Source of the DNA: a virus
Virus record (IMG/VR): IMGVR_UViG_3300045988_107359
Location: 1-41,201 of that record
DNA length: 41,201 nucleotides
Direction: 5' to 3' (one strand)
Every line of letters begins with the position of its first letter. Position 1 is the stretch's first letter. A program made the translations under genes and the position numbers. Shown here piece after piece: positions 2,276-41,201 of this stretch. The notes beneath the pieces are model-generated. The model ran no database searches. It saw only the letters and a list, made by a program, of their open reading frames with translations, and was not told where the DNA came from.

Positions 2276-3525
2276 TTATCCAGCGCCGAGATACCCGGCA
2301 GTCACTTCCCCGCCGGTCATGTATCCTGCGTAGTCTTCCGGCGCATCATCCTCTTCGTCGTCCCAGAAGACAGGCTCCTTCTCTTGAATGGCTTCTGCCG
2401 GTAACACACGACTTACGCAGTAGTAGCGCACACCATCGACCGTGTGGGTCACCTCGTGTGGGTCTTTGGCGCAGTCGTTCGGGTTCTTTTCATCCGCCTG
2501 AATGTCCTGAATATCCCCGACAGCGCCCTTGCAGGTGTCGAAGAACAGCAGCCCAGGCAACTTGTCAGGGACAGTGCCATCATTCCGACGGAACATGGCC
2601 TGCACATGTGGGTCACGCAGAGGATAGGGAGCCATCGCTTCCTTCATCATCATGTGGCCCTGGACGCGGTTGTTATCCGCTTTGATAAGACCCACCTGGT
2701 TCAGCATGAACACCTCCGCCATGGTCTTGCCGGTGTCCTTCTGCCTGCTCCACATATCCGGCGGCGCATAGGTGGCCGCGATATGCTCACCCGGAAGGGT
2801 CAGCTCATGTATTTTGTCCGCCGCTTCCTTGACGATCAGGCCCTTATGGGTGAACTCCCGGTAGCACCAGGAGCGTCCATCCTCATCCACCGCCCACCAG
2901 TAACACGCGAACATGTCAAGGCCGTAGTCAAAACTCCGGTATCTCTGCCAATGGTCTGGAATCTTGAAGGGCTTCACCACATGAGTAGCAACGGAAAACT
3001 CCGGGAAGTAGTTGCCGCCGATTGCGTTCCAATCGCCATAGCGGTAAGCCTTTCGCTTGTCTTCCGGCATATTTGCCAACATCCGCACATAGCCAGGGGA
3101 AGAAGCCATCAGGTGATAGTTGTCTTCAACTGTGGCGGGAATGAAACTATAATCATCCGGGTTCTCATTCTCTTCCGGGTTGTCCGAGTTGAGCTTGAAG
3201 TCCCTGTCGATGAAGAGCCGCTTCACCCATCTGTGACCGACACCGCCGGGGTTACAAGTCAGGTACATCCGCTTTGGGAACTCATTGACGCCACGAAGAC
3301 AGCCGCCCAGGAAGTTGAACGCTCTCTCAGAAAACTGCGTTGCCTCGTCAATGAAGATCCAGTCGTATTCCAGACCGTTGTATTCGTCCTCAGAAGCATC
3401 TCCGGCCCAGTGGCCGAACTTGATGGTCGAGCCGTTGTGGAAGGTCATAAGGTGCGTTGTGGCGTTGTAAGAAGCCGCCTCACGCGGTACCATCTTTACG
3501 ATGGGGCGGATATGGTTTTCTTCTA
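2276..3525 (-). CDS. terL: Terminase large subunit, exon 2
   Basis: The reading frame is open upstream of the listed Met as far as 3525 (..LEENHIRPIVKMVPRE..). Walker B-like DWIFIDEATQF and a C-terminal nuclease-type region are present. There is no Walker A here (it is in exon 1) and no RBS before the internal Met. Confidence 0.85.
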
Positions 3526-4328
3526 CAATTTTGTTATCGCAAAGGCTTTTTATCCTCTGCTTCTAGCCCTTTCGGGTAGTTCGGCATATCTCTCTCCCCC
3601 TCTGGGGACCCGCTCTCGTGGGTGTGTCACCTGTTCTAGGCTCTCACCTATGCTCTGCGGCTGGACGGCATCCCTGCCGGCCTTCACCTCTGATTAGCCT
3701 GTCTGTAAATCGTTTGCGTAGATTGGCGTCGCAGCTAATCCACTGGCAATTCTCCGGGCAGTAATCACCATCCGGGTCAATGCGGTCAATAGAAAGAATC
3801 TCCTTGTGTGGAGTGTCCTTCGGTTGCTCGTAGTACCCATGTTCATAAGCCCATGCTCGAAACGCAGCGTAATCGTCTTTCCACTCGTCACAGACCTTGA
3901 TTCCCTTCATGGAGTAGTTCTTTCTGTGCTGTGCCTTGTTGTAGTAACAGCGTTGCTTCATGGCGTACCAGATCGTATAAAGTCGTTCCTTCTTGGAGTA
4001 GCCGTGCTTCGTGTTTCGTTCCCTAGTACACTCAGCTTTCAAGCACCCGCAAGAACGTGTCTTCCCTTTCACAAGGTCAGTACCGACTACCAGCGTCGTC
4101 ATGCCGCAATCGCAGGAACACAGCCACTTACCAACAGCCTTTCTCTTCCCGTTTGGAAGGGTCTTGTGCTGCAACTGATACTCAATGACGGTCAAGCGCC
4201 CGAAGCGCTGGCCTGTCAGCTCGTGTCTACGCATATATGAACCCCCTCTGGCGTTATTTACAGATTTAGCTTCCCAGCTTTTTAGCAGGTTTCTAACGTG
4301 TATTCCTACACGCCGGAGCAAGAAGTTT
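3526..4328 (-). mobile_element. Probable group I self-splicing intron carrying a homing-endonuclease-like ORF, inserted in terL
   Basis: 803 nt. The 5' splice site follows a U (GAGU|AAAC) and the last intron base is G (AAAUUG|UAGAAG). Joining 4329 to 3525 gives CCU GAG UUA GAA GAA AAC, i.e. ..RRTYPELEENHI... Exons total 229+1250 = 1479 nt, in frame. Candidate P1: exon CCUGAGU pairs with intron GCUCCGG (4319-4313), with a U.G pair at the splice site. Candidate P2 hairpin CGUGUA-GGAA-UACACG at 4312-4297. Confidence 0.72.
3644..4234 (-). CDS. Intron-encoded HNH/AP2-type homing-endonuclease-like protein
   Basis: ATG at 4234 is preceded by AGAGGGGG. Cys-rich N-terminus (CSCDCG..SCGC). LYTIWYAMKQRCYN and SIDRIDPDGDYCPENCQW motifs are typical of phage HNH-like endonuclease families. 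The ORF lies wholly inside the terL interruption. Confidence 0.7.
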   Translation of the reverse strand: MRRHELTGQRFGRLTVIEYQLQHKTLPNGKRKAVGKWLCSCDCGMTTLVVGTDLVKGKTRSCGCLKAECTRERNTKHGYSKKERLYTIWYAMKQRCYYNKAQHRKNYSMKGIKVCDEWKDDYAAFRAWAYEHGYYEQPKDTPHKEILSIDRIDPDGDYCPENCQWISCDANLRKRFTDRLIRGEGRQGCRPAAEHR

Positions 4329-4577: not shown

Positions 4578-4626
4578 AACAAAAAAGGGCCAGCCACCTA
4601 GAAATTTCTTTCTAGGTAACTGACCC
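4578..4626 (-). terminator. Strong rho-independent terminator 20 nt upstream of the terL start
   Basis: On minus: GGGUCAGUUACCUAGAAA-GAAA-UUUCUAGGUGGCUGGCCC. This is an 18-bp stem (3 G.U pairs) with a GNRA loop, followed by UUUUUUGUU. Confidence 0.8.
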
Positions 4627-4665
4627 CATTCGGCCCATCCTACCCACCACTTAGAGTAGGGTTAT

Positions 4666-4831: not shown

Positions 4832-4922
4832 TGGCGCGAGGAGGAGGATTTGAACCCCCACAGGCCTTGGCCCCTAGCGCATTTCAAGTGCGCCCTCTTC
4901 AACCAGCCTTGAGTATCCCCGC
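4832..4922 (-). tRNA. tRNA-Ser (anticodon UGA), type II with long variable arm
   Basis: 91 nt with encoded CCA. Acceptor GCGGGGA/UCCUCGC and discriminator G. 3-bp D stem with a long D loop. Anticodon stem GCGCA/UGCGC with loop CUUGAAA. T arm GGGGG-UUCAAAU-CCUCC. Confidence 0.85.
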
Positions 4923-5271
4923 ATATAAATGCCCTACCAGAATTGTACTGGCGCTCTTGTCCCAAAGAGAGCTGCTCTTTACGGGCCGCAGCTTATCACA
5001 TAGGAGGGCGGTAGAAACCAATGAAAAGACCGCACCGAAAGGAGCCAAACTCTAGGTCATGCCCTAAAGCCCAGCATAAGCCCGTCTTTCCGGGCTGTCA
5101 GCCCGCTTCTGGTCGTGGCATGGCCTTGTACCTGCTATCCAAGAGTGTGCCCAAACCGAATAGCAAACCACGCTCGCATATCGCAGACAACTGAAAAACA
5201 GAGATAAGAATGGAAGCGAATTTCACTTCCTTTCCGTTCTGTATTTCTGCCAACTCCGTCGAGTTGGCACT

Positions 5272-5341
5272 TGGTACCCAGCAGAGGAATTGAACCCCTA
5301 AACACAACATGCCATATCGTGTCCGTAACCTTACACTAGGT
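5272..5341 (-). ncRNA. tRNA-like element or degenerate tRNA (possible anticodon GGC)
   Basis: 70 nt ending ACCA. T arm AGGGG-UUCAAUU-CCUCU. Acceptor ACCUAGU/GCUGGGU with 2 G.U pairs. Possible anticodon arm ACGAU-AUGGCAU-GUUGU. Only 14 nt are available for the D region, so no canonical D arm. Confidence 0.35.
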
Positions 5342-5580
5342 ATAGTTGTTTATAATCTGTATATGTGTCGAGTGCCCTGTTCTATATTTCAGAATGGCTT
5401 TTCTGAAATGGTACCCCCCGTTTTTCTGGTGTATGGTTTTCGTGAGAGGTATGTTTGGAGGGTTGCTCTCAAGAGTGTGTGTAGTCTATACAGGGGCCGG
5501 CCGCCAGAGGAGCGCCCTTTTTCCGCCACACCCTCACTGTTTGGTAGGGGGGTGGTAGGGGTACCCCCCTATATAGTAGG

Positions 5581-6745: not shown

Positions 6746-6774
6746 TTGCAATCCATGGTTAAACCATGTATTAT
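6746..6774 (+). promoter_or_regulatory. Promoter of the accessory operon, with the operator filling the spacer
   Basis: TTGCAA (6746-6751), 17 nt, TATTAT (6769-6774). The 15-bp palindrome CATGGTTAAACCATG (6754-6768) lies exactly between -35 and -10. Confidence 0.65.
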
Positions 6775-6818: not shown

Positions 6819-6989
6819 ATGAAAAAGATCATCGCTTGCATCTGCATCGCGCTCGCGGCCTTCGCCGCCGGCCACCTCACCACGATCTACACGCTGGAGA
6901 TCGAGACAGACGGCGACGGCGACAGCGCCATTGTTACCAGCTTCGGGCAGGAGCACTTCTACGGCATCAACGGCTACGAGATCGGCTAA
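6819..6989 (+). CDS. Small secreted or membrane protein (56 aa)
   Basis: Not in the ORF track because it is under 60 aa. RBS CAGGAGG lies 8 nt before the ATG. MKKIIACICIALAAFAAGHL is a signal/TM-like N-terminus. Confidence 0.5.
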   Translation: MKKIIACICIALAAFAAGHLTTIYTLEIETDGDGDSAIVTSFGQEHFYGINGYEIG

Positions 6990-7062
6990 CTCCATTCCGG
7001 GCCTGGGCGGTGTCCCGCAAAACGCCGCACCCCATAAATCTAAAAACAGATAGGAGATAACC

Positions 7063-7578
7063 ATGAAATACTTTATCAATGTGAACACCCTCGCAGAGCT
7101 GAAAGCTCAATACCGCCGTTTGGCGATGAAGCACCACCCCGACAGAGGCGGAGACCTGGAGATCATGAAAGCTATCAATGCAGAACATGATGAGCTTTTC
7201 TCCATCCTCTCCAAAGCTCAGAACGACAAAGCAGCAGCAGACCCCACCGGACGCACCGCAGCCACCACTGAAACCCCGGAAGAGTTCCGGCAGATCATCG
7301 ATCTGCTTCTGAAGCTGGACGGCCTGGAAGTTGAGCTTTGCGGCTCCTGGCTTTGGATTGGTGGCAACACCAAGGAACACAAAGACGCACTGAAAGCGGC
7401 TGGTTGCCGTTGGTGCTCCAAAAAGAAGTTGTGGAGTTGGCACCACCCCGAAGAGGGACAGCGTTACAGCAAGCATGGAAACAAAGACATGGGCTATATC
7501 CGCACTAAGTACGGCTCTCAGACGTTCGAGGCCGGAAAAGAGACCAGCAAGTACGCTAAGATCGGGGCGACCGCGTAA
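7063..7578 (+). CDS. J-domain (DnaJ-like co-chaperone) protein
   Basis: The N-terminus (LKAQYRRLAMKHHPDRGGD..MKAINAEHDELF) contains the HPD tripeptide. The C-terminal LCGSWLWIGGNTKEHKDALKAAGCRWCSKKKLWSW module recurs in Firmicutes mobile elements (recalled, not searched). Confidence 0.8.
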   Translation: MKYFINVNTLAELKAQYRRLAMKHHPDRGGDLEIMKAINAEHDELFSILSKAQNDKAAADPTGRTAATTETPEEFRQIIDLLLKLDGLEVELCGSWLWIGGNTKEHKDALKAAGCRWCSKKKLWSWHHPEEGQRYSKHGNKDMGYIRTKYGSQTFEAGKETSKYAKIGATA

Positions 7579-7599
7579 GCGGTCCCCCAGGAGGTAACA

Positions 7600-8055
7600 A
7601 TGGGATACAAAGATTTGCTTCTCCGATTCGGAGAAATCCAAGAGCAGGCCGAGCGCAAGATTTACATTTATGTAAGAGCCCCCGAAACCCTAAAAACAGC
7701 GAAAGAAATCGCCTGGAGAGACTGCGATGCAGCAGCCAAAATTAAAGAGCTGGAAGCCATAACAGAAGCTTTGAAAGACTACCGCACAGCCCTAGCGAAA
7801 CGATACGGAGAACTCGAAACGATGCCATACAAAGACGCGCTAAAGATCGAGCGTGTCCCACATTGGAAAAAACATATAGAGTATATCGTGACCATAACAA
7901 GGGTTTTCGAGGACGGAACCCAGAGAGAAGAGCTTCGAGAGATATACAAAGGAAAAGAACGTAAAGCAGCCCTCGGCAGATACGAAGGGCTTCGCAAGCA
8001 ATTTCCCGGCATCGAATCGACCAAAATGATTGATAAGCGAAGTTGGGAGAAATAA
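7600..8055 (+). CDS. Hypothetical protein
   Basis: 151-aa ORF with RBS CAGGAGG, same strand and operon. No motif recognised. Confidence 0.6.
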   Translation: MGYKDLLLRFGEIQEQAERKIYIYVRAPETLKTAKEIAWRDCDAAAKIKELEAITEALKDYRTALAKRYGELETMPYKDALKIERVPHWKKHIEYIVTITRVFEDGTQREELREIYKGKERKAALGRYEGLRKQFPGIESTKMIDKRSWEK

Positions 8056-8143
8056 GCCGAAACGCCCCTTCCGGGCGTCTGCCGGAAATAGCCTACCGGC
8101 ACTGATGAGGCAGGCTAAACACAAGACCAGGAGGATGAATACC

Positions 8144-8335
8144 ATGAAAACCTATTATTTCCCCGACAATGAACACTACGACGCTTTCTTCGGCGCTTTT
8201 ACCCCTATCTGCGTAGACCTAGCCGAGTTGGAGCGCCTGGCCCGTGGCTGGGAGATTGATTTCGATGAGCTGTTAGACCAAGTACACGAAGCAAGAGGCG
8301 ATGAGATCGCCGAGTACGGCGTTTGTGATAGCTGA
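8144..8335 (+). CDS. Small acidic protein (63 aa)
   Basis: ATG lies 9 nt after AGGAGG (8129-8134). 16 Asp/Glu against 4 Lys/Arg. Lies directly upstream of the CasB-like gene. Confidence 0.55.
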   Translation: MKTYYFPDNEHYDAFFGAFTPICVDLAELERLARGWEIDFDELLDQVHEARGDEIAEYGVCDS

Positions 8336-8414
8336 AACATCCTTCAGGATGTCCGCCGGGATTGCAAAACCAAGCAATCCCTGGTAAGATTAAGAAAAAC
8401 AGGAGGTTTTAACT

Positions 8415-8930
8415 ATGAAGAAAACCAATGAGTTCTTCTCCAACATCGACCGTCTGCCGCTGGGCAAGCGAAACGCCTTGAGGGACGAGGCAAAGAATCA
8501 GTTCGGCCAGGTCGAGCACCCTAGCACCTACGCTCACTTCTTTAGTTGCCTGCCCGAAACTATCCCGGAAGAGTTAGAAAGCCGCTGCTATTTCGCAGCC
8601 TGCCTTCACTGCTTGTGGCCGGTTGGCACTACCAACCGCCTGCCGGTAGAAGAAATCCTATGGGATATAGCAAGGAAAGATGCACAGAAGCAGAAGAAAC
8701 TGGAGCACGATTTGAAAATCCTGCTTGATTACCAGTGGGGAACCGGCGACATCCTGCCTGGTAAAATTTATCACCTGGCCAAGATTTTCAAAAATGAGGG
8801 CTATGCTATCGACTGCGCCGCTCTGCTGGACGATTTGATAAACTGGGACGACCTGAAACAAACCGTGCAGCTTAAATGGTCTCGCGCTGTTTACATGAAA
8901 CCAGGCACAGACGGAATTTTATATTGCTGA
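8415..8930 (+). CDS. casB: CasB/Cse2-like protein (type I-E Cascade small-subunit homologue), orphan
   Basis: 171 aa with RBS AGGAGG. N-terminal LPLGKRNALRDE and C-terminal IDCAALLDDLINW..TVQLKWSRAVYM match my recollection of Cse2 landmarks (LxxGxxAxLRR; DhxxLhxDLxxW...WARxYY), and the size fits. Not verified by a profile search. Confidence 0.55.
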   Translation: MKKTNEFFSNIDRLPLGKRNALRDEAKNQFGQVEHPSTYAHFFSCLPETIPEELESRCYFAACLHCLWPVGTTNRLPVEEILWDIARKDAQKQKKLEHDLKILLDYQWGTGDILPGKIYHLAKIFKNEGYAIDCAALLDDLINWDDLKQTVQLKWSRAVYMKPGTDGILYC

Positions 8931-8936
8931 CGCCCC

Positions 8937-8965
8937 TAGACAAACAACGAAAGTTGTCGTATAAT
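8937..8965 (+). promoter_or_regulatory. Near-consensus promoter of a small-RNA cassette
   Basis: TAGACA (8937-8942), 17 nt, TATAAT (8960-8965), with TG at -16/-15. Confidence 0.5.
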
Positions 8966-8971
8966 GCGCTT

Positions 8972-9043
8972 GTAATCCTTCGCAGGATTCAGCGCGACAA
9001 TCCCCCTTCCCGGTTATCAGGACCGAGAGGGGGGATGCTTTTT
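8972..9043 (+). ncRNA. Candidate ~70-nt small RNA ending in an intrinsic terminator
   Basis: 5' hairpin AAUCCU-UCGC-AGGAUU (8974-8989). Then a 14-bp hairpin AUCCCCCUUCCCGGU / ACCGAGAGGGGGGAU (9000-9036) followed by GCUUUUU. No ORF. Confidence 0.4.
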
Positions 9044-9239
9044 GACAGAAATTTGACAGGCCGAAATAGGTTATTCTGGGTAAAAATAAGGCATTTTAAG
9101 GCACAGAAACAGCTCAAAAACAGCCCATAAATAGGCACAGAAAAACCCGCAAACCGTTGGTATTCAATGGCTTGCGGGTTTTCGGTTGTTCGGATTCAGA
9201 ATTTCACCTAATCAAGACACGACGACATATTAAAACCCC
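9041..9239. other. Probable attP region (arm-type direct repeats)
   Basis: Non-coding stretch downstream of int. TTTGACAG occurs twice (9041-9048, 9052-9059) and AGGCACAGAAA twice (9099-9109, 9133-9143). The core site is not identified. Confidence 0.3.
9141..9183. terminator. Bidirectional terminator downstream of int
   Basis: AACCCGCAAACC / GGCTTGCGGGTT stem (one mismatch), flanked by A5 upstream and T4 downstream. Confidence 0.6.
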
Positions 9240-10367
9240 TTATTTATCAACGCTTTCCGCGTTTTCTACATCATCTTGACAGAGAAATTGATTCAGCCTC
9301 TCCGTTGCCGCTTTCTTCTGCCGTTTCCTGATGTGCGTGTACACGTTCAGCGTGGTTTGGATATCCGCATGGCCAAGAAGATCTTGCATATCCTTCATCC
9401 CAACGCCAGCTTCATATAAAATCGTGGCGTAATAGTGCCGCAGCTGGTGAGATGTAACTGTTACCCTCCACCTATCCAATCCACGCAGTTTCTTTTTCCC
9501 CTCCTGCTGTTCTTTCTCTTCTGCCAACCCCGCAGAAATACACCACCGTTTCCACGCGCGGTGATACTCATTTGCTGTCATGTAGCCGTTTTTCCCCTTA
9601 AATATCATCCCGCTTTTGTTGCGTGGAAGCCGCCGTTTCAGCTGTTCCAACAGGGATATCTCCCGTTCTCCTGCATCCGTTTTCGGCGTTTTCACGCGCG
9701 GGATACCATTGATAAATTCAACGGAATGTTTCACACTGATCAGATTTTTCTCCCAGTCGAAATCTTCCCAGCGCAGGGCCAGCAGTTCAGCGCGGCGCAT
9801 CCCAGTAAACGCCTGGAGCAGCGGAAACAGCCCGAATCCTTCACCACCAAATGCCGCCCGCACCTTATCCATTTGTTCGTCTTCCGGCGGCTCCCTGGTC
9901 CCTTTTGGCAGGTTTCCGGGCAGCCTTGCAGATCGCGCTGGGTTGTATTTAATCATACGCTTCAAAATAGCGTAATCAAAAATCCCGTTCATCACGTTCT
10001 TGCGCTTGGACACAGCACTAAACCCCAACCCCTTCGCCGCTGCGCTCTTTAAAAAGTCCATGATCTCATCAGCGTAAATGTCGCCAATGTTTCGCCCGGA
10101 AAACCAGTCCTTCGCTTCGCGCAAAGAGGGCATGTATCCGTGCTCTGTGTTCCAGCCGACCTTATCCACCTCTATCTTAAAATTGAGCCACTCATCCGCC
10201 ACCGTCTCAAACAGCACGGCCTTCTCCTTGGCTTCCTCTTCGGCCCGGTTCCACTCAGCTATCTTCCGCCGTACTTCCTTCTGTGTTTTGCCGTAGAAGT
10301 ATTTGGGTTTCGCCATCCCCGGCAGCTTCACTTGCTCCTGCCACCGTCCGTCCTTGCGTTTAATCAT
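9240..10367 (-). CDS. int: Tyrosine integrase
   Basis: 375 aa. The C-terminal catalytic region (HQLRHYYATILYEAGVGMKDMQDLLGHADIQTTLNVYTH) carries the R..H-x-x-R..Y signature of tyrosine recombinases. Confidence 0.9.
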   Translation of the reverse strand: MIKRKDGRWQEQVKLPGMAKPKYFYGKTQKEVRRKIAEWNRAEEEAKEKAVLFETVADEWLNFKIEVDKVGWNTEHGYMPSLREAKDWFSGRNIGDIYADEIMDFLKSAAAKGLGFSAVSKRKNVMNGIFDYAILKRMIKYNPARSARLPGNLPKGTREPPEDEQMDKVRAAFGGEGFGLFPLLQAFTGMRRAELLALRWEDFDWEKNLISVKHSVEFINGIPRVKTPKTDAGEREISLLEQLKRRLPRNKSGMIFKGKNGYMTANEYHRAWKRWCISAGLAEEKEQQEGKKKLRGLDRWRVTVTSHQLRHYYATILYEAGVGMKDMQDLLGHADIQTTLNVYTHIRKRQKKAATERLNQFLCQDDVENAESVDK

Positions 10368-10595: not shown

Positions 10596-10778
10596 ATGAA
10601 CAACATCGAAAGAGTGGCTGCCTTTATCGACAGCCGAGAAGAAGCAGAATCTATCCGTCTCCTACTCTCCCATACTTTTAAGCCACGCTTCTATAAGCTG
10701 GACAAGGGCTATCAGCATATCGGCCTGGTTGTCGGTGAGGTCCTCGCCGGGCTTGATAATCCCCCTGCTAACAAGTAA
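10596..10778 (+). CDS. Hypothetical 60-aa ORF, convergent with and overlapping the repressor 3' end (doubtful)
   Basis: RBS GGAGGG lies 6 nt before the ATG, and TATAAT sits at 10568-10573. Overlaps the repressor gene by 117 nt on the opposite strand. Confidence 0.3.
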   Translation: MNNIERVAAFIDSREEAESIRLLLSHTFKPRFYKLDKGYQHIGLVVGEVLAGLDNPPANK

Positions 10779-11045
10779 ATCCTCTAACCACTCCCTTGTG
10801 CTTTTAACAGGCGCAGGGGAGTTTTCTTCTTCTATCCCTATCAGTTCGTTCGGGTCCATATCCAACGCAGCAGAGAGGGCCTTTAACCGTGTTATAGGGA
10901 TGTTCTTGATTGCGCCCGTCTCATAGCGTTGCAGCGTGGAGCGGCTCATTCCGGTTACATCCGCGAGATCGGCGTAGGAGTAACCGAGCTGTTTTCTCCT
11001 ATACGCTAGTTTTTTCGCAATTTCATTGTAATCTAGTTCTTTCAT
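10662..11045 (-). CDS. CI-like repressor (XRE-family HTH)
   Basis: N-terminal HTH (LGYSYADLADVTGMSRSTLQRYETG). Divergent from a Cro-like gene, with shared operators between them. Confidence 0.85.
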   Translation of the reverse strand: MKELDYNEIAKKLAYRRKQLGYSYADLADVTGMSRSTLQRYETGAIKNIPITRLKALSAALDMDPNELIGIEEENSPAPVKSTREWLEDLLVSRGIIKPGEDLTDNQADMLIALVQLIEAWLKSMGE

Positions 11046-11240: not shown

Positions 11241-11435
11241 ATGAACGCCAATCTTATTCGTGGGAAAATCGCAGAACGCGGTCTCACTCAGCAAAAACTT
11301 GCTGAGAAAACCGGTATTTCTGAGAACTCCCTCTCAAGAAAGCTCTCAGGAAAGCGTGATTTCCGCCTGGAAGAGGTAAAAAGAATCTGCGCCATTCTTG
11401 GCATAGAGAATCCGTCCCCTTATTTTTTTACCTGA
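11241..11435 (+). CDS. Cro-like HTH regulator
   Basis: 64 aa with HTH LTQQKLAEKTGISENSLSRKLSG. First gene of the rightward early operon. Confidence 0.8.
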   Translation: MNANLIRGKIAERGLTQQKLAEKTGISENSLSRKLSGKRDFRLEEVKRICAILGIENPSPYFFT

Positions 11436-13131: not shown

Positions 13132-13268
13132 TGACCCACGACCACCCCGTGTATCGGCGCTGTATCCGGTGTTCCAAGCATTGGAACGTGAGCGCCATCG
13201 AACCAGGCCCGGACGTGTATGTCTGTCCGAGCTGTGCCAATTTCTTTGAAAGGATGTTGAAGAAGTGA
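13131..13268 (+). CDS. Small zinc-ribbon protein (45 aa)
   Basis: Not in the track. TGATG overlap. CIRC..(18 aa)..CPSC. Confidence 0.45.
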   Translation: MTHDHPVYRRCIRCSKHWNVSAIEPGPDVYVCPSCANFFERMLKK

Positions 13269-13441
13269 AGAAAACCGTGGAGATCACCCGCGAGATCATC
13301 CATGACTTCATCATGGACGAACCCAGCGACTTCGTGGATTTCTGCCAGAAGCTTTATGAGGCAGAGGTCTTAGCCTATCTGGACTACCGTCAGCAGGAGT
13401 TTGACGAGTGGATTGATAGCCGCATCAGAGGGGAGGGTTAA
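13265..13441 (+). CDS. Hypothetical 58-aa protein (GTG start)
   Basis: Not in the track. GTGA overlap, with GAAAGGA 10 nt upstream. Fills the gap to the next gene. Confidence 0.4.
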   Translation: MKKTVEITREIIHDFIMDEPSDFVDFCQKLYEAEVLAYLDYRQQEFDEWIDSRIRGEG

Positions 13442-32635: not shown

Positions 32636-35380
32636 TTAGCCGATACCAAGGAAGTAGTAGGTAGTACCGGCATAGTTCCATTGTGTATCCGCAGAATAAG
32701 TAGAAAACCAATATATTACTTTCGAGTCATTAGATTTTTTTGCGGATACATATTGCCGGTTGCCGAAACACTTGGTCCACTCGGAATCGTTCAGAGTGGC
32801 AACGGGAATCTTGGTTAGCACACCATTACTGTCTGTTTGGTTGACATAGGTTCCGCTAGTAAGGCGTAATACCAAAAACATAACCACCTTCGGCGGAAAA
32901 TCAAACGTCAGGCTACACGGGTTACTCTCCCCATACGTCCCAGTACCCACATAACTAACCACCTGCACCCTCGCTTTATCCCCCAACTTCCCCAGGTATT
33001 CGATAGTGGTACCTGCTGGGATAGCGGCGTAGCCGGTGACGGGTTGAGCCGTAAAGGTAAACACGTTGCTTCCATCGGAGCCTGGCGATTTTGCGACACT
33101 TACGCTACTATCCACCTTAAAAAATCCGGTAGAACCTTTTAATCCACCGGCGCTAGAATGAACCGGAATATAAACGTATTTCCCAGCGATACTTGATTTC
33201 ACAGTATCTGGTTTTGAGCTGTTGTACACACCCGCAGTTATAGGGGATGTGATGGATAACGTACCATCATCGGTAACGCCTAATGAACTGCCAGTCAAAA
33301 GTTGTGGGCTGCCTCCTCCAACAATTGTTACGGTCTGGGCATCCCCCAACGTATACCCCGCCTCTTTCGCATCATCGCCCTCTTGATACGCATTGGGGTT
33401 TGTTGATACAGGGTAGGTGGTGGTTGTTCCGGCGGGGGTTAGTGGGTGGCCGGTAACGTCCTGGCATTTTGAAAGCCTAATGTATAGGTAGTTAGATTCC
33501 GTGGTCATAGAAATGTTGGCATCTGCTGGAACATAGAAGATTTTGCCAGCCAAACTACTGTAAGAGTTGTAATCAGGATGCTGATAGGACCGAATCAGGA
33601 TAAACTTTCCGGCAATTACCGACGAAATATAGGTGAAGTTCGAGTTAGCGGTTACTTCGCCGTAATCATTGTCTGGATTGAGTGAGATTCCGCCATTATC
33701 ATCGACAGCTAGACTGTCGCTGTATCCCATGTAAAAACCAATATAGCCTTCCCCGGAGCCTGTCGCAGAGATATCTTTTTTTGTTTTAACATCCCCCAAT
33801 TTATACCCCGCCGGAATCTCCTGCGCTGTCGTAACGGTTTTACGCCAAACATGCAACTCCCCCGTATTCCCCAACGCCCGAAACATGCCGTCGGGGGTGG
33901 TGGAGGGGGGGAGGCCGATGATGGGAGGGGTGGTGGGTTTGAGGATGTCTCCTACTTTGCTGTTGAGCAGGCTCAGAGGAACAGGATGGTTGTCCGCTGT
34001 GGGCGACAGGATGGAGAGAGGACCGGTCATGGTGCCGCCTGCGAGAGCAAGGTAGTTTTTCAGCAGTTCTGCATGGGCGTCGGTGGCGGTGTTGTGGGCG
34101 CTGACTGCTGTGGTGGCGGTGCCCTTGGGGTCTGCGCCGGTTTGTTCGGCGGTGACTTTGTGGGGGTTGCTTTGGTCGGCAATATGGCCTGGGACTTTGG
34201 AAAGGGCGGCGTTGAAGGCGGTCTCTGTGCCGGTGTAGCCTGCTTCTACGGCAGCGGTAAAGGCACTTTTTCCGTTTTGGCCGCTCACACCTGCCGGGCC
34301 TTGGGGTCCTTCCGGGCCGGTCTCGCCTTGGGGGCCTTGCACACCTTGGATGCCTTGGGGGCCTTGTTTGCCCTGTTTGCCCTCCGGGCCGGCCTCACCC
34401 TGCACACCCTGGGGGCCTTGGGGGCCTTGGGGGCCGGTCGGGCCTTGGAGCTTGCCGACGGAAGTCCAGTCGCCCTGTGTTTCAGACCAGATGTAGCACT
34501 CCTCGTCGGCTTTGACCATGTACATCTTGTCATTGCCGTTGGGAATGGCGTTTTTCAGCGCGGCAAGGGTGCTGTAAATGTCCTCGATGTAGAGGCTGGT
34601 GCCGTCCTTACCGGGGGCACCGGCAGGACCTTGGGCACCGGTGGGGCCTTGTGTCCCCGCTTTCCCCTGCGGACCCTGGGGGCCGGTAGGGCCTTGCTCA
34701 CCCTGTTCTCCCTGCACACCCTGTACGCCGGGGATACCCTGGATACCCTGCGGACCTCTGGCACCCTGTGCGCCCTGTTCGCCCTGGACACCCTGCGGAC
34801 CCTGTGGGCCACGGACAGACACGGCCTGGGGCGCAATGGCACTGTCCTGGATGGTGAAGGACATGACACCGTTTGTGTCGATGCTTGGGACGATGCTTGG
34901 GCCGGTGGCTCCTCGGTCTCCCTTGTCGCCCTTCACGCCCTGGATACCCTGTTCTCCCTGGGGGCCGGTGTCACCCTTCACGCCGTGGACGATGGTCTTG
35001 GTGCCGTCATCGGAGACTTCGCAGTTGTCAAACTGCATCCGTCCGCGCTGGGGCAGGGTCTCCCCGGCAGGGTCCATAATGATGTGACCGGCAGAACCGG
35101 ATGCCTGCCAAGTCACGCCGTCCTGGCTGGTTTCCAGTACTCGATCTGCGTTCAGGCGGATGTACTTGAAACCTGCTCCTTCCGGGAGCTGTACGCTCGT
35201 CTCCACGCCCAGCGTTTCCAGAGCGGGAAGCAGGGTGACGTTGATATACTCCTGGATGGTCAAAGGCCCTTCGTCGAACTTCTTCTTCAGTTCGGCAGCA
35301 GACAGACCGCCTACGTCGTTGGGTTCGTCGTCCAACTTCTGGACGATGTTTAAGTCTTCGTTCAGCTTTTTTAAGCTCAT
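32636..35380 (-). CDS. Collagen-like tail fibre protein
   Basis: Start [11 protein letters not shown] lies after GAGGTGA. Three Gly-X-Y tracts, then a long beta-rich C-terminal half. Confidence 0.8.
34268..34984 (-). repeat. Collagen Gly-X-Y triplet-repeat tracts
   Basis: Residues about 136-165, 193-263 and 315-374 of the fibre ORF are uninterrupted G-X-Y ([13 protein letters not shown]...). Confidence 0.9.
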
Positions 35381-35385
35381 AGGTA

Positions 35386-37488
35386 TCACCTCGCATAGCC
35401 CGTGAATCGTACCCGCATGTCAGCGGACAGGATGGTCACGGTGGTGTTAATGGATTCCGTTCGGAAAATCAGCTTGTAAAACACGAACTTCTTCGCCTTG
35501 ATCTTCAGGCGCTTCATGTGCGGCTTTCGGTTCGGGTTGAAGCTCCACTTCCGAAAATCCGCCCCGGAAAACGAGATCAGGGACGAGACCACGACCTTGT
35601 TTGTATAGGCCGATTTTCGGTCTGTCTGAACGGTTACATAGACTTCACCGTGGGTCTCCGGCTTGATGCCTACCCACAGCATGGCGCTGTACTTTCGCAT
35701 GAAGTCCTGAGAAAAACTCTCTGCGCCGCTTTCCCAATAGCTTTCGATTTTCTCCCCGTTGTCTGTCCGGTTGGTGTAAGCGATGAGATTCAAGCGTCCC
35801 TTGCTGTCTCCACTATATAGCTTCCCACGGAAGTTTACGAAGCACGTCACGTCAAAGGCTGTGTAGCAGTACCAGGCATCTGCGGCGTAGTTGTGTACCA
35901 GCGCCCTGTTGTCTGTATTGATGATGTAATACTCTTGGTTGTCGTTGTCGTCCCAACAGCGGCAGTGTTCCAGGTCAAAGCCTGCCAACGTCCCCATGAT
36001 GCGGTCAGAGATACGCCGTGCCTGCCGCTCGTCAATGGTCATGTTGGCAGAGTAGGAAGAGCTGTTCTTCCACTCATACAAGTCGTGCCCGAAGAGCGTT
36101 CTCGGAGAGTTCAGCACCAGTTGTGCTTGCCCCGGTGCCACATTTCCAATGGCTCGGTTCACGGGCGTTGCGTAGAACGTCGCCGCCGTGGTGTTGTCCA
36201 CCATCGTGGTCACGCCGTACTGCACGGAGTAGGTAGACGTAGACTTGTAGACGATCAGCCGGGAGTAGTGCCGAATGAGTGCCGTGATGGGAGTGTTGGC
36301 GTCCCCCACTTTCAGGACGTTCATGTCCGGGAAGTAGTCTGCCCTCGGTTTTCCATCGTTGTCCAGGCCGGAGTAATATGCCTCGTTCGTGCCGTCTCCA
36401 TAGAGAAAGACACGGTTGTCGTTGGCTCCGTTGAAGGTCTCTGCATACTTCATGGCAAGCGCCTTGTCCCGGAAGTTCTTCTTCACTTCCCACGCGATTT
36501 CAATGGTGTTTATCCCCTTCTCCGGGGCTGTGCTGAAGGTCACAGTCCCCTTTTCCAGGTCAACGGTGTACTTGCTCTTCTCGATCTCAGGCTCGTTCTC
36601 TGCCGCCTTGTTCTTTACCCAGTCTACGGACTTCAAGTCCTTCTCCGGCAGGGTGAAGGTAGTGGCAGTGCCGTCCGGGGAGAACCAGCAGCGGCGCTTC
36701 CCGTTGAGCTTGTTCACCTGCTCATAAGTGGTGCCGCCGCCGCTTGGAACGACGGTAATGGTCACGATAGGCCGGTACCCGTCCACGTCCTGAAGTGTTT
36801 TTCCGTCCCACTCTTTGTACTGGCCCTTTGCCATGATATAGAGCTTTTCAGAGTAGCCGAAGAAAAACACCGGTTCCGTGGTGTCCAGATCACCAATGGC
36901 TTCCCGCTTCCATGCCCCGTCATGGAGCTTCCAGAGCTTTCCGTCGGCAGCGCCGACCAGGTACTCTTTTCCCTTCACGTTGCCAGCCCATAGACCAGCG
37001 ACTTTCTGGTTCACGGAAGAGGATACCGCACGGCAACGCTTCATCTTCCAGGTGTACTCATCCCGTTCTGCGTCATAGGTGCAGGAAACAAGCTGATAGG
37101 TGAAGTTCTCGTCATAGCGCCAATAGTATCCTGCGTACTGTTCCGCGTTCTCGTAGCTTACAGAGACCTCGTCCCCGGAGACTTCCAGAAAACCGTCTGT
37201 CGTCACAGTGCAGGTTGGGTGCATCCGAAGCTTGCCGGAGACATGTTCATCAACGCGAACTTTTTGCGCGTTGTCCTCCACCTGCAAGGTATAGGCTTGC
37301 AGTAAGCCCTTCACCATCTGCTGTCCCGGTCTTCTCTGCAAGTTCCGGTCACGGGTGACTTTGAAGTTCCGAATGACCGATGCTTCCCCCATTTTCAGTT
37401 TGGTGTCGCCGTCTGGGTTTTCGTTCAAGCCAAGAAATTCCTGGATACGAAAGACCTTCTCGTCGGCTCCGGTCGTAATTCTCGCCAT
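35386..37488 (-). CDS. Large tail / nozzle-type structural protein
   Basis: 700 aa, lying between the head-completion gene and the fibre gene. Function inferred from position only. Confidence 0.5.
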   Translation of the reverse strand: MARITTGADEKVFRIQEFLGLNENPDGDTKLKMGEASVIRNFKVTRDRNLQRRPGQQMVKGLLQAYTLQVEDNAQKVRVDEHVSGKLRMHPTCTVTTDGFLEVSGDEVSVSYENAEQYAGYYWRYDENFTYQLVSCTYDAERDEYTWKMKRCRAVSSSVNQKVAGLWAGNVKGKEYLVGAADGKLWKLHDGAWKREAIGDLDTTEPVFFFGYSEKLYIMAKGQYKEWDGKTLQDVDGYRPIVTITVVPSGGGTTYEQVNKLNGKRRCWFSPDGTATTFTLPEKDLKSVDWVKNKAAENEPEIEKSKYTVDLEKGTVTFSTAPEKGINTIEIAWEVKKNFRDKALAMKYAETFNGANDNRVFLYGDGTNEAYYSGLDNDGKPRADYFPDMNVLKVGDANTPITALIRHYSRLIVYKSTSTYSVQYGVTTMVDNTTAATFYATPVNRAIGNVAPGQAQLVLNSPRTLFGHDLYEWKNSSSYSANMTIDERQARRISDRIMGTLAGFDLEHCRCWDDNDNQEYYIINTDNRALVHNYAADAWYCYTAFDVTCFVNFRGKLYSGDSKGRLNLIAYTNRTDNGEKIESYWESGAESFSQDFMRKYSAMLWVGIKPETHGEVYVTVQTDRKSAYTNKVVVSSLISFSGADFRKWSFNPNRKPHMKRLKIKAKKFVFYKLIFRTESINTTVTILSADMRVRFTGYAR

Positions 37489-40881: not shown

Positions 40882-41201
40882 CTAACCGGTTACAATGGGC
40901 AACCGTTCCACCTCATCCATGATGGTGTCCAGGTGTCCGTTGCCACCGAGTGCCTTGTAGGTTCTATGCATCTCCTGGATGTTCTCTTTGTCTTCCAGAG
41001 TGATGCCGCCAGCTTCGACATACCGTCTACCGAGGGAGCGCACCCGGTCGATCATCAAAACTTTCTGCGCTGCTGCCAGCGCATCCAGCTTGTCGTCTTC
41101 TTTGTCTTTCTTCATCCAGTGCCGATTCAGAAGGGCTACCACAATGGCAGAAAACCCGCTCGAACCCAGCACGATGCCGATGATCTTGAAAATGGGTTCC
41201 A
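40882..41201 (-). CDS. Single-TM membrane protein (106 aa), truncated by one base at the window end
   Basis: In the duplicated copy the ATG is at 120-118 and overlaps the portal stop (TAATG). Full product MEPIFKIIGIVLGSSGFSAIVVALLNRHW.. has one N-terminal TM helix. Lies upstream of the holin, so possibly lysis-associated. Confidence 0.6.
   Translation of the reverse strand, partial: EPIFKIIGIVLGSSGFSAIVVALLNRHWMKKDKEDDKLDALAAAQKVLMIDRVRSLGRRYVEAGGITLEDKENIQEMHRTYKALGGNGHLDTIMDEVERLPIVTG
41083..41201. repeat. Second copy of the terminal overlap
   Basis: Identical to 1-119. Confidence 0.95.

Follow-up and report, generated by a model that had tools for sequence, protein, structure and literature searches.

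A solo Cse2/CasB homologue at the prophage end of a temperate phage: a remodelled type I-E small subunit as a candidate anti-CRISPR

IMG/VR virus record IMGVR_UViG_3300045988_107359 (positions 1 to 41,201; this whole stretch of 41,201 nucleotides, nt, is termed the window) contains an open reading frame (ORF) that resembles cse2, also termed casB or cas11e. In type I-E CRISPR systems this gene encodes the small subunit of the Cascade complex. The question raised by the locus is what a single Cascade subunit does in a phage. The original prediction, made from the letters of the sequence, was of an orphan CasB/Cse2-like gene in a temperate phage whose product might enter host Cascade as a decoy or dominant-negative subunit, or might protect the prophage from self-targeting. 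The ORF, its ribosome binding site and two codons that are central to the argument are as follows.

8415 to 8930, plus strand: solo cse2/casB (cas11e) homologue, recognised by an operonic-Cse2 hidden Markov model (HMM), by Pfam, TIGRFAM and PADLOC matches, and by AlphaFold2 (AF2) with Foldseek
8401 to 8406, plus strand: Shine-Dalgarno sequence AGGAGG, 8 nt 5′ of the ATG, by direct sequence reading
8484 to 8486, plus strand: codon of Asp24, which aligns with R27 of E. coli Cse2
8709 to 8711, plus strand: codon of Asp99, which aligns with R101 of E. coli Cse2

The ORF starts with ATG and has a translated sequence of 171 amino acids (aa), 19.6 kDa. The N- and C-terminal motifs that the original prediction had quoted as Cse2 landmarks, LPLGKRNALRDE and IDCAALLDDLINWDDLKQTVQLKWSRAVYM, are present in the product and fit the family consensus, i.e. 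L..G.R..L[KR]R.AG and ID...LL.DL..WN....VQ.KWAR. An HMM made from three Cse2 proteins of complete I-E operons matches the ORF with an E-value of 4.5e-34 (112.6 bits). The curated profiles give specific matches with scores that are below their cut-offs: CRISPR_Cse2 of Pfam (PF09485) matches at E = 4e-4 and 21.2 bits (cut-off 24.6) and casB_cse2 of TIGRFAM (TIGR02548) matches residues 20–158 at E = 4e-4 and 20.5 bits (cut-off 28.5). Six Cas11e models of PADLOC match the protein, the best at E = 1e-6, and the only meaningful matches in a PDB sequence search are three Cse2 crystal structures (E = 0.02–0.1).

A word-indexed search found only three close homologues. Searched exhaustively with a profile, a set of 1.84 billion cluster representatives yielded 161 relatives. 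Pfam Cse2 is matched by 70 of the 71 full-length relatives, and the nearest relatives score above the curated casB_cse2 cut-off. The family profile in turn matches Cse2 structures 3WA8, 2ZCA, 4H7A and 5U07_B in the PDB (E = 2.5e-17 to 1.7e-7; for crystal structures, E = 2.5e-17 to 4.5e-14). The window family itself is rare, with two 50%-identity clusters among the 1.84 billion representatives; the clusters of the close homologues have 97, 8 and 57 member sequences.

The AF2 model of the window protein, made with a 32-sequence alignment, has a pLDDT (per-residue confidence) of 87.8 and a pTM (predicted template modelling score) of 0.85; this alignment includes genuine Cse2 sequences, which is to be kept in mind when the fold match is read. 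It was used instead of a model from the four close sequences only, which was unusable (pLDDT 44). When the model is compared with the PDB by Foldseek, the 16 best matches are all Cse2/CasB chains (Thermus, Meiothermus, Thermobifida, I-E-HNH and E. coli Cascade) with template modelling (TM) scores of 0.53–0.75, and the next match is at about 0.16. The all-alpha Cse2 fold of approximately 160–200 aa is thus displayed by the window protein. No PHROGs family was found for it, and no fold similar to the model was found in the BFVD viral structure library. Because the operonic HMM, the family profile and the AF2/Foldseek matches all lead to Cse2, the 171 aa product is a genuine Cse2/CasB (Cas11e) homologue despite single-sequence scores below the cut-offs, and the original identification is upheld.

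The relatives fall into two groups. With cas profiles, 34 loci were classified; 25 have cse2 inside an I-E operon and nine have a solo copy, which with the window makes 10 solo copies. Relatives with 31%–36% identity are located in complete cas3-cse1-cse2-cas7-cas5-cas6e-cas1-cas2 operons that are followed by I-E arrays, and these operonic relatives are type I-E loci of gut and rumen Oscillospirales. Three further relatives of about 675–690 aa (P0049, P0072 and P0079) have a Cse2-like region at the C-terminus and are probably Cse1-Cse2 fusions.

The sequence of E. coli CasB was verified against PDB 4QYZ_B and aligned to the family by MAFFT; hhalign gave the identical mapping. In both, E. coli R27 corresponds to D24 and R101 to D99 of the window protein. 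The window protein has five substitutions at columns that are strongly conserved in operonic proteins, i.e. Arg to Asp at 24, Gly to Lys at 27, Arg to Asp at 99, Arg to His at 120 and Arg/Lys to Leu at 153. The residues at these columns in the 25 tabulated operonic proteins and the 10 solo copies are as follows.

R27 column (window D24): Arg in 25 of 25 operonic; Asp in seven solo copies, Glu in one, His in one, Lys in one and Arg in none
K27 column: Gly in 25 of 25 operonic; Lys in seven solo copies, Arg in one and Gly in two
R101 column (window D99): Arg in 25 of 25 operonic; Asp in nine solo copies and Glu in one
H120 column: Arg in 24 of 25 operonic; His in nine solo copies and Arg in one
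L153 column: Arg or Lys in 25 of 25 operonic; Leu in nine solo copies and Lys in one

The two Arg columns have a known role. In E. coli Cascade, R27 and R101 of Cse2 are salt-bridged to D22 in the Cas7 backbone and, after target binding, hold the flipped-out bases of the target strand (PMC5965380; van Erp et al. 2015, PMC4787809). The R101A mutation alone makes E. coli immunodeficient, Cascade with R27A/R101A purifies without Cse2, and Cas7 D22A has a phenotype like that of the Cse2 mutants (PMC4787809). The equivalent of a further arginine, E. coli R119, is K123 in the window protein and is retained. The acidic partner sequence, LNRD[D/E], is kept in Cas7 of all 25 related I-E operons; in E. 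coli Cas7 it reads LNRDD, where we take D22 to be located. Since Asp is at both anchor columns of the window protein and the Cas7 partner is still acidic, the window protein should not dock on Cas7 in the canonical way.

A tree of the family groups the window protein with P0001, P0002, P0003 and P0004 as a monophyletic mobile-element clade in 92 of 100 bootstraps. P0028, encoded by L036, has Glu at the R101 column and joins this clade in only three of 100 bootstraps. Because P0028 is separate from the clade in the tree, the acidic switch at the R101 column appears to have arisen at least twice, which points to convergence. Among phage variants the ratio of nonsynonymous to synonymous substitution rates (dN/dS) is 0.04–0.26, about 0.1, with dS up to 0.47, and the reading frame is intact in all of at least 12 copies. 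An apparent internal stop in the L005 copy was considered as a sign of a pseudogene and ruled out, as it only trims the last four residues. By this substitution pattern the cse2 homologue is under purifying selection and is a functional gene.

Solo copies are found on at least four different mobile-element backbones. The first is the window phage family (L002, L004–L007, L016 and L037–L039). The second is L001, an integrative element that carries P0003 (68% identity), an integrase, an AcrVA2-like gene and a toxin-antitoxin pair; this gene set fits an anti-defence or accessory island. The AcrVA2-like protein (PF26125), whose gene is about 6 kb from the solo cse2, and the PhdYeFM/PIN toxin-antitoxin pair are at positions 2622–3659 (minus strand) and 4832–5481 (plus strand) of L001. 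The third is L014, a different 75-kb phage-like contig with P0004, which at 40% identity is the nearest relative outside the phage family and is solo too. L014 also has an RT-2 RNA motif (125 bits) at positions 13191–13424 of the minus strand, which adjoins a reverse-transcriptase gene, and an NrdD gene that is split by an HNH endonuclease. The fourth is L036, a small contig on which P0028 is located beside a phage-type helicase.

The window is a circular 41-kb contig, as positions 1–119 are the same as 41083–41201 (119-nt terminal overlap). Genes for terminase, portal, DnaB and RusA are seen in its syntenic relatives. The genes of its lysogeny region are as follows.

9240 to 10367, minus strand: tyrosine integrase (Pfam Phage_integrase 7e-23, phrog_1 9e-62)
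10662 to 11045, minus strand: CI-like helix-turn-helix (HTH) repressor
11241 to 11435, plus strand: Cro-like HTH gene, divergent from the CI-like gene

With the circular contig, these genes and the integrated copies described below, the window is a temperate phage carrying an orphan cse2, as had been proposed. Profiles of cas3, cse1, cas7, cas5, cas6e, cas1 and cas2 find no match in the six-frame translation of the window (best E = 0.03), and PADLOC finds no Cas model in 20 other window ORFs. No CRISPR-like direct repeats were found in the window, and no sequence within nine mismatches of an I-E repeat. The predicted absence of other cas genes and of an array therefore holds at these thresholds, and the gene is not located between cse1 (cas8e) and cas7e in an I-E operon with an array. 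The 5.5-kb neighbourhood has no blastn match in annotated phage records.

Several other observations concern the phage. L038, a 78.6-kb contig with 1011x coverage, is a concatemer-like assembly that is colinear with the circular phage genome. It was considered as a prophage with host flanks, and this was ruled out as the assembly is concatemeric and of free phage; it suggests that the phage was actively replicating or induced in that sample. A gut-2 RNA motif (41.5 bits, barely over the gathering score) and a tRNA-Ser(UGA) adjoin each other at window positions 4616–4663 and 4832–4922, both on the minus strand, and the pair is kept in L005, L006 and L007. A 917 aa ORF at 32636–35389 (minus strand) displays collagen-like 9-nt periodic repeats (Gly-X-Y type) at about 34281–34960 and is probably a tail fibre.

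The cse2 homologue is preceded by a cassette on the same strand and followed by a conserved module and the att region. The features around it are as follows.

6746 to 6774, plus strand: promoter-like TTGCAA-17-TATTAT in front of the cassette, by consensus scan only
6819 to 8335, plus strand: accessory cassette upstream of cse2, functions unassigned
6819 to 6989, plus strand: cassette ORF, 56 aa
7063 to 7578, plus strand: cassette ORF with a weak N-terminal J-domain (DnaJ) match (E = 1.8e-5, below cut-off) and a strong match to phrog_15863 (unknown function)
7600 to 8055, plus strand: cassette ORF, 151 aa
about 8135 to 8335, plus strand: cassette ORF, about 66 aa
8055 to 8119, plus strand: type II hammerhead ribozyme within the cassette, about 300 nt 5′ of cse2 (Rfam 49.8 bits, gathering score 37)
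8937 to 9043, plus strand: conserved post-stop module, i.e. promoter-like TAGACA-17-TATAAT, then two hairpins and a U-run
9130 to 9185, no strand: attP region, by alignment with the integrated copies L002 and L003

The gene content of the cassette differs between related phages (L002 and L016), and in L004 and L006 an additional 102 aa gene is inserted directly downstream of the cse2 homologue. On these two grounds the surroundings of cse2 are a variable cargo region. A promoter of its own for cse2, TTGCAA-N17-TAAGAT at 8362–8390, scores only 8 of 12, under the scan threshold, and is not claimed.

Hammerhead and/or twister-P5 ribozymes are found at the equivalent site in all related phages, with scores of 48–50 bits for the type II hammerhead and 61–69 bits for twister-P5, and both are found in L005. 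As these ribozymes are on the coding strand, they should cut a polycistronic mRNA between the cargo genes. The self-cleaving ribozymes of the relatives are located as follows.

L002, 9289 to 9343
L004, 9632 to 9696
L005, 9641 to 9705 and 9114 to 9168
L006, 9293 to 9357
L007, 9267 to 9331
L016, 1936 to 1990

The promoter-like sequence directly after the cse2 stop codon is near consensus (11 of 12), and the two hairpins that follow it have a fold of -35.2 kcal/mol (z = -3.9). A compensatory base change is found in the hairpin module of L002/L003, and in L004/L006 the module is duplicated around the inserted 102 aa gene. It could be an operon terminator or a small RNA of about 70 nt. An anti-CRISPR in the form of RNA was considered and ruled out, since there is no solitary I-E repeat unit within nine mismatches and an Rfam scan of 8300–9300 gave no match.

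L002 and L003 follow the window up to position 9184 and then continue into unrelated DNA. This divergence into an unrelated flank shows them to be integrated copies, with prophage-host junctions at the following positions.

L002, 10517 to 10893: prophage-host junction
L003, 772 to 1184: prophage-host junction

In both, the cse2 homologue is the final prophage gene, about 255 bp before the att junction. The neighbours of cse2 in the window are small unassigned proteins of a variable prophage-end cassette, and the cargo (moron) position by attP and the integrase gene that was originally assigned to it is borne out. Past the junction the host flank opens with a Mn-catalase/CotJC-like ORF (MFSYQKTLQYPVRIKNTNPKLA; over 22 aa it matches Pfam Mn_catalase at E = 0.004).

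The closest operonic Cse2 proteins are from gut and rumen metagenome-assembled genomes of Oscillospirales, i.e. Ruminococcaceae, Oscillospiraceae, Faecousia, Pseudoflavonifractor, Lawsonibacter and Butyricicoccus. The G+C content of the phage is 49%–59%. These operonic relatives, the G+C content, the gut-2 RNA motif and the Mn-catalase/CotJC-like flank together point to a host among the Clostridia, which would be an Oscillospirales bacterium with a type I-E system.

What, then, does the gene do? With moderate confidence we favour the view that it arose from a type I-E small subunit that was captured and then remodelled, and that it is now a candidate anti-CRISPR (Acr) of the phage. The source of the gene is most probably an Oscillospirales-type I-E operon. 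The target would be type I-E Cascade, and the mode of action that of a decoy or a poisoned subunit. Circumstantial support comes from purifying selection, from the recurrence of solo copies on several unrelated mobile elements, from the AcrVA2-like gene in L001, from the I-E systems of the closest relatives, and from published precedents of Cas-derived Acrs, of which the Cas11b-like AcrIB4 is the closest. The decoy proposed in the original prediction thus has support of this kind; entry of the protein into host Cascade, which was part of that proposal, appears doubtful, as the anchor arginines are Asp, the E. coli double mutant Cascade has lost Cse2 and the acidic partner in Cas7 is kept.

The candidate probably acts as a defective decoy and not via canonical docking on Cas7. 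Given reversed Cas7 anchors in a protein that otherwise keeps most conserved residues, a decoy is favoured over simple incorporation, and one that titrates another Cse2 partner is at least as likely as true incorporation into Cascade. A poisoned subunit that is held by the remaining contacts, e.g. K123, is possible. Expressed from the prophage or early in infection, the phage protein would compete with host Cse2 for a Cse2 partner, which may be the second Cse2 of the head-to-tail dimer, the C-terminal helical bundle of Cse1, or host Cse2 itself, whose arginine face the phage protein would complement in charge. As the phage protein would not supply the arginine anchor and relay, the "belly" of Cascade would no longer work; stable R-loops could then be neither formed nor locked, and the phage or prophage would escape immunity.

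Several points weigh against this reading. The alignment by which E. coli residues are mapped to the window protein is a distant one (hhalign E = 0.014). Beyond the 25 tabulated proteins there are operonic exceptions at the Arg columns, i.e. Ser in P0073 and Asn in P0042 at the R101 column and Glu in P0050 at the R27 column, and because of these, variation at the two columns does not by itself prove that a new function has arisen. A protein without the anchor arginines may just as well have ceased to interact with Cascade altogether. No recognisable known acr or aca gene was found beside cse2 in the window. A scan of 185,579 species-representative genomes with the window protein found no prophage copy, and the host flank of the integrated copies, only about 160 nt, does not directly name the host. 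Lastly, 257 unique spacers (67 at first) from the I-E arrays beside the closest operonic Cse2 genes give only chance matches, of at most 16 nt, to the window and the related phages.

The same three operonic proteins led to rejection of a simple rule by which a non-basic residue at the Arg columns would mark a solo copy. So far, only an acidic residue at the R101 column appears to be exclusive to solo copies.

A possible though rather unlikely explanation is that the Cse2 fold has been exapted for another task, either inhibition of another defence system or a part in lysogeny through binding of nucleic acid or protein. Action of a Cas homologue on a CRISPR type other than its own has a precedent in Cas3-derived AcrVIA2, which inhibits type VI (Katz et al.), and the window protein lacks the residues that link Cse2 to Cas7. 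The neighbouring cassette genes are of unassigned function. The pattern of conservation speaks the other way. The mobile-element clade retains 54 of 62 strongly conserved columns, including the hydrophobic core, both invariant Trp and the ID...LL.DL motif, and the window protein also retains the conserved surface residues R19, R23, K117, K123, D133, D140, Q152, K154 and R157. That these columns, many of them on the surface, are under purifying selection suggests that at least some Cse2-type contacts are kept, and the proteins most closely related to it belong to type I-E systems in the order that is the likely host.

It is improbable that the protein is a working small subunit which boosts the lysogen's own I-E Cascade, i.e. 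a pro-CRISPR factor in superinfection exclusion. Prophage cargo often protects the lysogen, and the protein still has the Cse2 fold and most of the conserved residues. At both anchor arginines, however, the charge is reversed, and in E. coli the R101A mutation alone abolishes immunity and R27A/R101A Cascade is without Cse2; Cas7 of the host type retains the acidic partner, and the tabulated operonic proteins have Arg at both columns without exception. That the gene is what is left of a cas operon fragment, now decaying and without function, which was taken up with host DNA by imprecise excision at the extreme prophage end by the att site, is very improbable in view of the low dN/dS over the dS observed, the frame that is intact in every copy (the L005 copy minus its last four residues), the good ribosome binding site, the single clade on three unrelated backbones with a convergent substitution on a fourth, and a present integration site that adjoins a Mn-catalase-like gene and not a cas locus.

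The favoured reading, a captured small subunit acting as a candidate anti-CRISPR, may be compared with known systems. With Cse2/CasB (PF09485, TIGR02548; PDB 2ZCA, 4H7A, 3WA8, 5U07 and 4TVX) the window protein shares full-length homology (30%–36% identity to Oscillospirales operonic proteins), the size, the all-helical fold (TM up to 0.75), the G.R..L[KR], ID...LL.DL..W and VQ.KW.R motifs and both invariant Trp. It differs in that the gene is alone on a temperate gut phage, outside a cas operon and under the Pfam and TIGRFAM cut-offs, and in having Asp for R27 and R101, Lys for the invariant Gly of "AG", His for Arg120 and Leu for Arg/Lys153.

Mobile elements of Listeria encode the Cas-derived inhibitors AcrIB3 (a Cas5 mimic), AcrIB4 (a homologue of the Cas8b C-terminal domain and thus of Cas11b, which is translated internally from cas8b) and AcrVIA2 (Katz et al., 10.1101/2023.06.24.545427; Nature 2024). 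All three come from type I-B genes of Listeria, and it is only recently that Acrs of Cas origin were shown to exist. According to a proposal in the EVADES preprint (10.1101/2025.06.06.658234), AcrIB4 amounts to a Cas11b homologue and takes the place of Cas11. Like AcrIB4, the window protein is derived from a small subunit, is solo on a mobile element and is proposed to be a defective mimic of a Cascade subunit that would act before or at target DNA engagement. AcrIB4 is of type I-B, is about 9 kDa, comes from the 3′ portion of cas8b and has Acr activity verified experimentally, whereas the window protein is a Cas11e of type I-E, full-length at 19.6 kDa, with a charge reversal at its anchors and an activity that is only predicted. 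AcrIB3 is also Cas-derived, with the fold kept and a functional element lost, the "hook" in AcrIB3 and the arginine anchors in the window protein. It mimics another subunit, and it assembles into a defective I-B Cascade as seen by immunoprecipitation, whereas incorporation of the window protein is doubtful.

The catalogue of Katz et al. (10.1101/2023.06.24.545427) has 358 orphan viral cas genes from IMG/VR. These resemble the window gene as cas homologues on viral contigs without an array or operon and in variable cargo regions. In the part of their Table S3 (356 uncultivated virus genomes) that was available, the entries are of the cas1/3/5/6/7/8 type and there is none for cse2, cas11 or casB. 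AcrIE1–10 have the same presumed target, type I-E, but according to an April 2026 review none is a Cas homologue, and they bind Cas3, Cas7e, Cas8e or the single-stranded DNA of the R-loop. The review lists no Cse2-derived Acr, and in the literature searched there is no Cas-derived Acr of type I-E and no full-length small-subunit mimic. In common with the class of Cas-derived Acrs, the window gene is a Cas homologue on a mobile element without a cas operon or array, and its functional element is altered. What it adds is that the small subunit is full-length, belongs to type I-E and has a lesion that can be pinpointed; the principle is not new.

A bolder proposal, which is tentative and goes well beyond the favoured reading, is that the solo copies are a first Cas11e-derived anti-CRISPR family with at least two independent origins by R101-type charge reversal, and that the protein is a charge-complementary decoy outside Cascade. 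Its Cas7-binding face, now acidic, would bind either the arginine face of host Cse2 or the helical bundle of Cse1, and small subunits would thereby be removed or kept away from Cascade. If this is true, such inhibitors could be found by a sequence rule, in which the gene is solo and its R101 column is acidic.

The solo copies amount to a natural experiment, in which the arginines mapped by E. coli mutagenesis as the anchor between Cse2 and Cas7 appear reversed on mobile elements more than once. This offers a concrete and falsifiable mechanism and a one-residue diagnostic for mining more examples, and it may provide a genetically encoded off-switch for type I-E tools. For the biology of these phages, it would show at the level of a gene how an immune component, once stolen, can be made into a phage weapon.

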